IMG/VR virus record: IMGVR_UViG_3300027896_000019
Coordinates: 35,820 to 99,819 of that record
Reading direction: 5' to 3' (one strand)
Source: a virus
Lineage: Duplodnaviria; Heunggongvirae; Uroviricota; Caudoviricetes
DNA length: 64,000 nucleotides
Shown: positions 23,689 through 23,801 of the stretch, piece by piece
Layout: every line of letters starts with the position of its first letter
Numbering within the stretch: the stretch's first letter is position 1
The notes under the pieces: model-generated
Seen by the model: only the letters and a program-made list of their open reading frames with translations
Databases searched by the model: none
What the model was told of the DNA's origin: nothing
Translations under genes and position numbers: made by a program

Positions 23689-23801
23689 GGGGGTATAGTT
23701 CAACTGGTAGAACACTAAAATGTGTATAGATTATACACTTACAGCAATTATTATTATCGCCTTTTAAGCGAGAGTTATAGGTTCAAATCCTATTGCCCCC
23801 A
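23689..23801 (+). tRNA. tRNA-Lys(UUU)-like gene interrupted by a 41-nt insertion between positions 26 and 27
   Basis: Acceptor stem GGGGGTA/TGCCCCC, D arm GTTC-AACTGGTA-GAAC, anticodon arm (A)TCGC-CTTTTAA-GCGA(G), T arm ATAGG-TTCAAAT-CCTAT, discriminator A. The 41-nt insert 23715-23755 carries a GTGTATA-GAT-TATACAC hairpin and an ACAGCAAT copy. Confidence 0.5.

Follow-up and report, generated by a model that had tools for sequence, protein, structure and literature searches.

A tRNA-Lys(UUU) with a fifth arm beside a Ro60-like protein gene: a probable Y-RNA-like tRNA chimera in a Caudoviricetes virus

What is a well-formed lysine tRNA doing with 41 extra nucleotides (nt) between its D arm and its anticodon stem? 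The question is raised by positions 23689–23801 of a 64,000-nt stretch of the Caudoviricetes virus record IMGVR_UViG_3300027896_000019 (hereafter the window, meaning the whole stretch analysed). An original prediction, made from the letters alone, had recognized a tRNA-Lys(UUU)-like gene here and had offered a disabled tRNA, an unusual processed precursor, an attP core or a tRNA-mimic non-coding RNA as explanations. We infer that the 113-nt element is likely a Y-RNA-like tRNA chimera bound by a phage Ro60-like protein, and that it probably serves in tRNA damage, defence or quality control. Particles of Ro60 and Y RNA are conserved all the way from bacteria to humans, but the RNA partner has been identified in only a few lineages and what the particles do is still under debate.

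The tRNA parts listed in the original prediction are all present. The Rfam tRNA model RF00005 matches exactly 23689–23801 on the + strand, end to end, with 49.2 bits against a gathering score of 29, so that the tRNA covariance score lies above the curated threshold. The alignment covers model positions 1–71 and places 54 nt at a spot where the model has 13. A covariance model of our own (R1), for which canonical tRNAs from related loci were used, scores 50.0 bits at identical coordinates. The acceptor stem has 7 base pairs (bp), the D arm is GUUC/GAAC, the anticodon arm is UCGC-CUUUUAA-GCGA with the anticodon at 23763–23765, the T arm is AUAGG-UUCAAAU-CCUAU, and the discriminator is A. The nucleotides for tertiary interactions are complete as well (U8, A14, A15:U48, G18, G19, U33, G53:C61, U54, U55, C56 and A58). 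ARAGORN, the check that had been suggested along with the prediction, calls no tRNA in the whole 64-kilobase (kb) window with the element intact, and a 73-nt tRNA-Lys(ttt) when the 41 nt are removed in silico in any of five registers.

The element is thus not a continuous tRNA body of 70–95 nt free of an extra arm in the D/anticodon region, since it carries 41 extra nt at the 26–29 junction. The insert folds as GUGUAUA-GAU-UAUACAC (23722–23738), then UU, then ACAGCAAU (23741–23748). The minimum free energy (MFE) fold of the 113 nt is a cloverleaf with an additional hairpin (z = -3.3), and this hairpin is the one described earlier. The 41 extra nt likewise stand as described, but their exact placement is ambiguous between 26/27 and 28/29, the second being the one used in the Rfam alignment, because C27-U28, right after the D arm, can also pair with A42-G43.

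The original prediction had also noticed that the insert shares a core with neighbouring repeats, which is correct and proved the key lead, but the shared 8-mer alone is at chance and it is the composite with a helix that is significant. By itself, ACAGCAAT occurs 4 times in the window against 3.5 expected, and we dropped it as a stand-alone repeat in favour of a composite module consisting of a 7-bp helix, 2 nt and ACAGCAA. Wherever ACAGCAAT occurs in the window, one strand of the 7-bp helix lies two nt upstream of it, whereas the remaining ACAGCAA sites in the 64 kb are without an AGRCRC-type helix. The composite is found five times, always on the + strand and within 2.4 kb around the gene at 24341–25858; one copy, at 25940–26001, goes beyond the repeats listed earlier. 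The module copies, the tRNA and the gene are as follows.

23594–23661, + strand: unit 1, a minimal closing-stem module, UUAGACAC-UA-ACAGCAAU, a 40-nt loop, then GUGUCUAG-UA
23689–23801, + strand: tRNA-Lys(UUU) body with a module arm at the junction of D arm and anticodon stem (Rfam, our own model, ARAGORN, tertiary nucleotides, MFE fold)
23722–23748, + strand: module in hairpin form within this tRNA, GUGUAUA-GAU-UAUACAC (7 bp), UU, ACAGCAAU
24125–24186, + strand: unit 3, a minimal closing-stem module, UUAGGCAC-AA-ACAGCAAU ... GUGCCUAG-UA (z = -3.25)
24229–24288, + strand: unit 4, a minimal closing-stem module, UAGACAC-AC-ACAGCAAA ... GUGUCUA-GUA
24341–25858, + strand: Ro60-like protein gene, 505 amino acids (aa) (Pfam, PHROG, AlphaFold/Foldseek)
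25940–26001, + strand: unit 5, a minimal closing-stem module 3′ of the protein gene, UUAGACAC-UA-ACAGCAAA ... GUGUCUAG-UAG

In units 1, 3, 4 and 5 the partner strand of the helix lies 40–50 nt downstream and closes a loop that opens with ACAGCAA. In the tRNA copy the partner strand comes immediately before the other strand, which makes a small hairpin with ACAGCAAU behind it. Locally the two forms have the same structure; what differs is their connectivity, which is circularly permuted. The helix of unit 3 is compensated relative to the others, with UAGGCAC/GUGCCUA in place of UAGACAC/GUGUCUA.

The protein encoded beside these modules combines an all-helical N-terminal domain (Pfam DUF2828) with a vWA-like domain (DUF7788, and weakly VWA_2), and it falls in PHROG 850, 'RNA-binding protein'. 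We searched its alignment-based AlphaFold model (AF2; pLDDT 88.3, pTM 0.89) against the Protein Data Bank (PDB) with Foldseek, and ranks 1–10 were all Ro60 or Deinococcus radiodurans Rsr, matched over the full length and both domains (E 3e-8 to 1e-5, TM ~0.59), with just isolated vWA domains below them. The MIDAS motif DxSxS...T...D is invariant in the family (D304, S306, S308, T372 and D404). As modelled, then, the protein has the predicted architecture and fold of Ro60, a helical repeat ring plus a vWA domain with its MIDAS. Mycobacteriophage homologs that are 35–37% identical already carry the annotation 'Ro-like RNA binding protein'. The family is large, with more than 5,600 protein clusters at E <= 1e-10, and matches at E < 1e-10 come from 710 GenBank phage records, with Rose5 gp53, Tsamsa gp247 and Felix O1 gp42 among them. 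The hosts of these phages include Escherichia, Salmonella, Mycobacterium, Vibrio, Listeria, Staphylococcus, Campylobacter, Enterococcus and Bacillus, among others. A reading of the repeats as a terminase or cos/pac site was abandoned after the 505-aa protein had been identified.

Does the module accompany this gene elsewhere? We assembled 182 loci that encode a homolog (given L numbers here), drawn from viral contigs, from bacterial genomes and metagenome-assembled genomes, mostly of Clostridia, and from assemblies with the closest relatives. Across them ACAGCAA occurs 623 times on the gene strand versus 80 times on the opposite strand and ~89 times per shuffle, and ACAGCAA with its flanking helix occurs 490 times versus 16 and ~24, an enrichment on the gene strand of ~30-fold. 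At least one module is present in 155 of the 182 loci, with 194 copies <=400 nt upstream of the gene and 37 <=400 nt downstream of it, so the association with the gene is specific for strand and for position.

The module itself is conserved and covaries. Its consensus is A-[A/U-A-G-R-C-R-C]-NN-ACAGCAA ... [G-Y-R-Y-C-U-U/A]-G, where A(-10) and the 3′ G are conserved and the helix always has 7 bp, of which the two at the base are conserved and the inner ones covary. At position -4, for example, the pairs are A-U in 209 cases, G-C in 117, U-A in 41 and C-G in 20. The helices are correspondingly varied (AGACAC/GUGUCU, GGCGC/GCGCC, GGCAC/GUGCC, GAUAC/GUAUC, AGACCAA/UUGGUCU and AGACCGU/ACGGUCU). Independent evidence for the helix lies in this variety and in the motifs taken as such, since a partner helix accompanies 79% of the gene-strand motifs versus 20–27% in controls.

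The search was also run in the opposite direction, scanning viral contigs for AAGACACNNACAGCAA alone, which gave 123 matches. Where the partner helix was present (n = 45), a homolog was found in the fetched stretch in 19 cases, 17 of them with the gene <=3 kb away on the same strand; where the partner strand was missing (n = 78), a homolog was found in 2. ARAGORN tRNAs in the homolog loci lie on the strand of the Ro60-like gene in 329 of 333 cases, and therefore the gene typically sits inside phage tRNA arrays. In many large phages (e.g., L117, L119, L116 and L310) the array around the gene holds at least 20 tRNAs.

Next we consider how the module is joined to tRNA parts. It occurs in four forms: alone, as a stem closing a plain loop; capping a tRNA-like body; replacing an anticodon loop; and, rarely, added to a complete tRNA. 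Among hairpin-form modules, 64 of 69 lie in tRNA-like bodies. The majority of hairpin-form modules replace the anticodon loop, as at L001 1502–1642 and L031 2855–2967, and a minority leave a separate, well-formed 7-nt anticodon loop in place and sit at the D/anticodon junction. Hairpin modules in tRNA bodies equivalent to that of the window are found in L001, L023, L031, L040, L104, L113, L118, L128 and L144. The chimeras built on a complete tRNA are these.

Window: Lys-UUU
L023 and L188: Asn-GUU
L144 and L145: Glu-UUC
L113: Asp-GUC

The closest comparison is with L023, whose protein is 53% identical to that of the window and whose layout is the same: a promoter, a closing-stem unit, a tRNA with the module, a closing-stem unit and the gene. 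Between the two RNAs the T stem has changed on both sides at 49-65 (A-U to G-C) and at 51-63 (A-U to U-A), and there are compensatory changes in at least two D-stem pairs and in one acceptor-stem pair, while the module and the anticodon stem are conserved and the anticodon differs. We counted these changes by reading the sequences, as pairwise MAFFT misplaces the module by 2 nt. The window RNA has no encoded CCA; its discriminator A is followed by CUAAAU, a sequence it has in common with L023. In L113 (5280–5403), which has an Asp-like loop and a looser arm, a 3′ CCA is encoded.

Closing-stem units tell a similar story. Out of 388 distinct units, 67 enclose a T arm versus 5 after shuffling, and 34 have both D and T arms, in natural order in 22 and permuted in 12. 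Capped tRNA-like bodies are found, for instance, at L019 2485–2610, in Oscillibacter valericigenes (L069) and in L073 beside a true tRNA-Phe. Close relatives of the exact design in the window are rare, because one metagenome scan for tRNA plus module gave one true match, a duplicate of L023, together with six chance matches in coding DNA. An exact-pattern scan of viral contigs for the window hairpin gave 0 matches.

Several variants stand beside these forms. Directly upstream of the gene in L001 (2762–2897; also in L002, L003 and others) lies a 136-nt match to the tRNA model with a 69-nt insert in the anticodon loop, and this insert has a different hairpin, AGAGCCUUGUAUAAGGCUUU, followed by AACCGCAAA in place of ACAGCAA; judging by its sequence it may be a divergent variant of the module. 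In two related chimeras, L027 1855–1963 and L040 2851–2959, the ACAGC of the motif has its complement in a GCUGU directly ahead of the T arm. Such a pairing is absent from the window and from most units and is therefore not general, so we rejected it as a feature of the module. A ribozyme reading was rejected too: no Rfam family matched at E <= 10, and the minimal units, a stem with a ~17-nt loop (L017 3935–3969), are too simple.

A cultured phage ties the module to an RNA of known type. In Rose5 a 368-nt gap after the 'Ro-like RNA binding protein' gene contains three units, and these are the sole consensus modules in the complete genome. The middle unit is closed by the module, UGGACUC-UA-GCAGCAAU ... 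GAGUCCA-G, and encloses a T arm, a closed acceptor-like hairpin and a D arm, which is a permuted order. The Rfam YrlA model scores this unit at 36.4 bits with a local E of 1.6e-6, below its gathering score of 69. So the body that the module caps is of YrlA type in one lineage and tRNA-like without permutation in others, and in many cases it is a plain loop.

Modules lie beside the gene in the cultured phages Tsamsa, Staphylococcus phage S-CoN_Ph3, Rose5, Felix O1 and FADO. Felix O1 strain FO1a has four of them interspersed in the tRNA array after gp42, and the Bacillus subtilis phage FADO has five. None of the inspected phage records annotates a module; the regions are blank or lie under tiny 'hypothetical' open reading frames (ORFs). 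In S-CoN_Ph3 (L311, OR354826; 7519–7866) three modules in a row, right behind the 'RNA-binding protein' gene, are overlapped by CDS0028 and CDS0029, two ORFs labelled 'hypothetical protein' that are probably mis-annotated non-coding RNA. No Rfam family matches the modules beyond tRNA and, weakly in Rose5, YrlA. No description of an RNA partner for the DUF2828 or 'Ro-like' phage proteins was found in the literature, in a search that left some potentially relevant reviews outside. Going by the association of module and gene, such RNAs would form a widespread family of Y-RNA-like partners in phages, one that is apparently undescribed.

Within the window, the RNAs and the gene lie between features that would delimit a single transcription unit.

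23511–23543, + strand: intrinsic terminator ending the preceding gene, the upstream border of the unit (13-bp stem, then a T run)
23561–23589, + strand: consensus sigma-70 promoter, TTGACA-17-TATAAT (12/12 match, the best of the region)
23823–24119, + strand: small ORF of 98 aa with a strong ribosome-binding site, AAGGAG, within the same transcription unit
26011–26033, + strand: terminator-like hairpin, GGAUUG-GUGUU-CAAUCC followed by U6 (sequence reading; tentative)

From the promoter spacing, transcription would start at ~23596, at the first nucleotides of the unit 1 helix, and the arrangement of a promoter followed by the first unit is also seen in L017, L021, L023 and L144. When the 745-nt leader is folded as a whole (z = -5.1), every element is retained, the unit 1 stem included. 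Unit 4 is enclosed by a 16-nt outer duplex that is 94% complementary (24212–24227 with 24291–24306), forming a long near-perfect stem just upstream of the ribosome-binding site of the Ro60-like gene, and this duplex may be an RNase III-type processing site that splits the small RNAs from the mRNA. The 98-aa ORF has no Pfam or PHROG match; it is called as a gene in L020 and is absent between the RNAs and the gene in L023, so its position is not conserved. Unit 5 is intergenic, because the next gene begins near 26067. The hairpin at 26011–26033, tentative because the scan tool did not call it, is the probable end of the unit.

Other genes of the window deserve mention. About 1.5 kb upstream of the tRNA element are two tandem tyrosine-recombinase-like genes (21247–22113 and 22148–23074, + strand), the second weakly integrase-like (PHROG 5830); L017, L019 and L023 have kept both the pair and its placement ahead of the RNA array. 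A stand-alone vWA-domain protein of 209 aa is encoded in the replication module (31930–32559, + strand), and in L019 a 727-aa protein with a weak vWA match is encoded downstream of the Ro-like gene. Finally, an RNA ligase is encoded at 43782–44873 (+; PHROG 968, E = 1e-75; Pfam PHA02142 OB-fold and RNA_ligase PF09414), on the strand of the Ro60-like gene and ~18 kb downstream of it. No polynucleotide kinase or phosphatase was found among the window ORFs scanned.

A number of observations weigh against reading the element as a Ro60-bound RNA. That the window protein binds the helix and ACAGCAA is something we infer from genomic neighbourhood. The likeness of the protein to Ro60 is at the level of fold, with 11–13% identity: there is no Pfam TROVE match or detectable sequence similarity to Ro60, and neither phmmer nor the family profile found Ro60 among PDB sequences with the 505-aa protein. 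The module is also unlike the Ro-binding motifs GNCGAA and GGUCCGA. The near-100% helix pairing among modules is partly circular, because modules were chosen for having the helix. In the module-first search, 26 of the 45 helix-bearing matches had no homolog in the fetched stretch, a profile search included. These 26 lie within large tRNA arrays, on the tRNA strand and with several modules per array, so the module could in the first place be a feature of tRNA-array transcripts, for example one for processing or insulation. In these 26 cases the gene may also lie elsewhere on their 100–200-kb contigs, as was confirmed once (L217 and L149 are on one contig). As for the anticodon set Lys/Asn/Glu/Asp, it amounts to four independent examples, and the capped bodies show CAU, GAA and UAG loops.

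The observation on tRNA arrays leads to an alternative in which the modules are cis-acting transcript elements, serving RNase processing, antitermination or insulation in tRNA arrays, or as an autoregulatory operator, with the tRNA a mere host. Modules do lie in 5′ leaders, between genes and between tRNAs, with several per array far from detectable homologs; unit 4 sits in a long duplex resembling an RNase III substrate, and one unit is often directly upstream of the gene's ribosome-binding site. A processing signal, however, leaves the invariant single-stranded ACAGCAA unexplained, and a cis element leaves unexplained the fusions to YrlA-type and tRNA-like bodies and the tight clustering with the Ro-like gene. 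Moreover, phage T5, with 25 tRNAs, has no module in its tRNA array and no homolog in 1–100 kb. We therefore regard a purely cis-acting role as quite unlikely. (T5 does have RNAs annotated as 'stable RNAs with unknown functions' or 'tRNA-like stable RNAs' among its tRNAs (L315, NC_005859; 30284–33949 and 40848–41566), but these, namely RNAI, RNAIII, RNA1, RNA2, RNA2H, RNAIV, RNA3 and RNAX, have no ACAGCAA module and are a different set from the module RNAs.) It is unlikely as well that the element is a working tRNA-Lys decoding AAA/AAG whose extra arm projects from the hinge like a long variable arm, for regulation, protection or delivery. The canonical acceptor, D, anticodon and T features and tertiary nucleotides, with U33, A37 and discriminator A73, would fit such a tRNA, as would its being the sole tRNA-like gene in the 64-kb window, the proper 7-nt anticodon loops of its relatives and the encoded CCA end of L113. 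Most family members, however, have no anticodon loop or acceptor end, and therefore decoding cannot be the function of the family; a bound protein of roughly 57 kDa would presumably clash with the ribosome, and we know of no natural tRNA with an arm at 26/27.

If the 41 nt were instead an intervening sequence that is excised, with the halves rejoined into a mature 72-nt tRNA-Lys, for example by the phage RNA ligase, then the perfect tRNA-Lys left by removal in any register and the RNA ligase encoded by the window phage would both make sense. Yet 41 nt are too few for a self-splicing intron, and the insert matches no intron family at the gathering score or at E <= 10 (the bulge-helix-bulge motif was not formally modelled). 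ARAGORN in intron mode gives solely a nonsensical Cys call on the 113-nt element, and no splicing endonuclease was identified. Identical modules also occur free-standing and in topologies where excision would leave no tRNA, and this makes the processed-precursor or intron explanation of the original prediction very improbable. Least probable of all is that a repeat fragment inactivated a tRNA and left a pseudogene, or that the element is the attP core of the upstream integrase; in either case it would have no function as RNA. The insert is indeed related to the neighbouring repeats and integrase genes do lie 1.5 kb upstream. But the design is kept in L023, with compensatory stem changes, and in L144/L145, with different anticodons; the tertiary nucleotides are all intact; and the element stands directly behind a consensus promoter. 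As to attP, the window holds no second copy of the tRNA 3′ segment, and L023, with syntenic integrase genes, has a different 3′ half. The one earlier explanation that gains support is a tRNA-mimic non-coding RNA, which can now be put more specifically as a chimera of a tRNA with a Y-RNA-like recognition module, tied to a Ro60-like gene.

How might such a chimera work? One strong early promoter would drive a single transcription unit with five module-bearing RNAs and the gene for the Ro60-like protein (a TROVE-fold ring plus vWA). The polycistronic transcript would be cut into separate small RNAs, RNase P and RNase Z freeing the tRNA-shaped one. The Ro60-like protein would then bind the helix and the single-stranded ACAGCAA(U), as Ro60 and Rsr do with the conserved Y RNA stem, giving a set of ribonucleoproteins (RNPs), one of which would tether the protein to an L-shaped tRNA displaying a genuine Lys anticodon loop. 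By analogy with Rsr-YrlA in tRNA damage and RNA repair, this RNP might act on the tRNA pool during infection, either by luring enzymes that bind tRNA, anticodon nucleases for instance, as a bait or decoy, or as an adaptor through which the Ro-like ring reaches tRNAs that are damaged or misfolded and are to be repaired or degraded.

Anticodon nucleases classically target Lys(UUU), and the Lys, Asn, Glu and Asp tRNAs have hypermodified wobble bases and are attacked by classic anticodon nucleases. That the anticodons of the complete-tRNA chimeras match these targets is, with four examples, a lead and not a result. An RNA-repair context for the Ro60-like RNP is suggested circumstantially by the window RNA ligase and by the genome of Rose5 (L312/L314, MW822149), where a band-7-like membrane protein (gp48) is encoded just upstream of the Ro-like gene and a polynucleotide kinase (gp75), an RNA ligase (gp87) and a HicA-like toxin (gp84) are encoded as well. 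Taken to its furthest, and here we are doubtful, the proposal would be that one undescribed RNP system is common to phages whose hosts are Firmicutes, Actinobacteria and Proteobacteria (among them Felix O1, mycobacteriophages and Bacillus phages like Tsamsa), that a universal handle, the helix with ACAGCAA, loads a Ro60-like ring on tRNA-derived RNAs, and that in its rarest form the handle sits on a complete, possibly chargeable tRNA that serves as a protein-armed decoy, sensor or repair adaptor against tRNA-targeting immunity.

A large and apparently unannotated family of partner RNAs would matter for several reasons. More than 700 sequenced phages encode its protein, which forms more than 5,600 clusters, its signature is simple to search for, and its tie to tRNA is unusually explicit, up to a complete tRNA with a putative protein-binding arm. 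It would give a concrete handle on what Ro-like RNPs do during infection, in tractable phage-host pairs such as Felix O1/Salmonella, FADO/B. subtilis and Rose5/Mycobacterium smegmatis, and it bears on a current question, namely how phages withstand immune systems that cleave tRNA. It would also account for 'oversized' or failed tRNA calls in phage genomes and for spurious mini-ORFs annotated in phage tRNA regions.

Set against known systems, the window proteins and RNAs first meet a family that is already annotated: the phage genes labelled 'Ro-like RNA binding protein', 'DUF2828 family protein' or 'RNA-binding protein' belong to the same family as the window gene. Burroughs & Aravind in 2016 and an Annual Review article of 2020 on bacterial Ro60 reportedly treat TROVE/Y-RNA in RNA repair. 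With the vertebrate Ro60-Y RNA RNP (PDB 1YVP, 1YVR and 2I91) the window system would share the predicted full-length helical ring with vWA/MIDAS and, putatively, a stem with adjacent conserved nucleotides as the protein handle, but it differs in its 11–13% identity and lack of detectable sequence or profile similarity. Metazoan Y RNAs are described, in Chen et al. 2014 (PMC4201824), as having no tRNA-like domain.

The nearest likeness is to bacterial YrlA/Rsr (RF02553). In the same paper (PMC4201824), Y RNAs of bacterial Ro60 orthologs and of those of 22 phages lie on the same strand within 4 kb of the gene, and members of the YrlA class contain GNCGAAN0-1G and have their tRNA-like domain permuted; the Salmonella operon rsr-yrlBA-rtcBA responds when tRNAs are damaged (PMC7790460). 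As with YrlA, we find small RNAs on the strand of a Ro60-fold gene and a few kb from it at most, frequently several at one locus and in phages too, in which a terminal stem with a conserved element, here presumed to recognize the protein, is combined with a tRNA-like domain. In the window the tRNA-like RNA lies 540 nt upstream of the same-strand gene at 24341–25858, whose predicted Ro60-fold product is, unlike Rsr, Pfam DUF2828 and not Pfam TROVE. The recognition element is a 7-bp helix, NN and ACAGCAA instead of GNCGAAN0-1G, and the latter is absent near the 5′ end of the tRNA-like RNA and from units 1, 3 and 5; the sole GNCGAA in the window RNAs, in the unit 4 loop, has no trailing G and is at chance level. 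Moreover, the window RNA is a complete, unpermuted tRNA whose parts stand in natural order; its acceptor ends are open, its anticodon loop is a true one and the module is an arm added to it, whereas YrlA has the permuted order of T arm, acceptor hairpin and D arm. The Rfam YrlA model does not match the window RNAs, and no YrlA or Y_RNA model match was found in 23450–24400 even at E <= 10. Self-cleaving ribozyme and riboswitch families of Rfam likewise gave none at E <= 10, and the locus has no nucleotide-level match among GenBank phages.

With tRNA introns the element shares extra nucleotides that interrupt a gene whose flanks reconstitute a perfect tRNA. It differs from the group I tRNA introns of bacteria, which lie in the anticodon loop, in that 41 nt are far too few and no intron family matches, and it differs from tRNA introns generally, the archaeal bulge-helix-bulge kind at non-canonical sites included, in that the repeat family of the insert also exists outside tRNAs and in its bacterial-type promoter and phage context. 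Phage-encoded tRNAs that counter tRNA-targeting defences (PMC10264068, PMC11464382 and PMC11555353) resemble the window RNA in having a phage-borne tRNA shape, early expression and often arrays, but they are of ordinary size and functional, with no added protein-binding arm and no tie to a Ro60-like gene, so that a connection with them would be one of analogy. Taken together, the element would be best placed as a Y-RNA/Ro60 RNP with tRNA mimicry, but one with a different recognition motif, a remote protein subfamily, several topologies and, in the window, its handle built in as the fifth arm of a tRNA.

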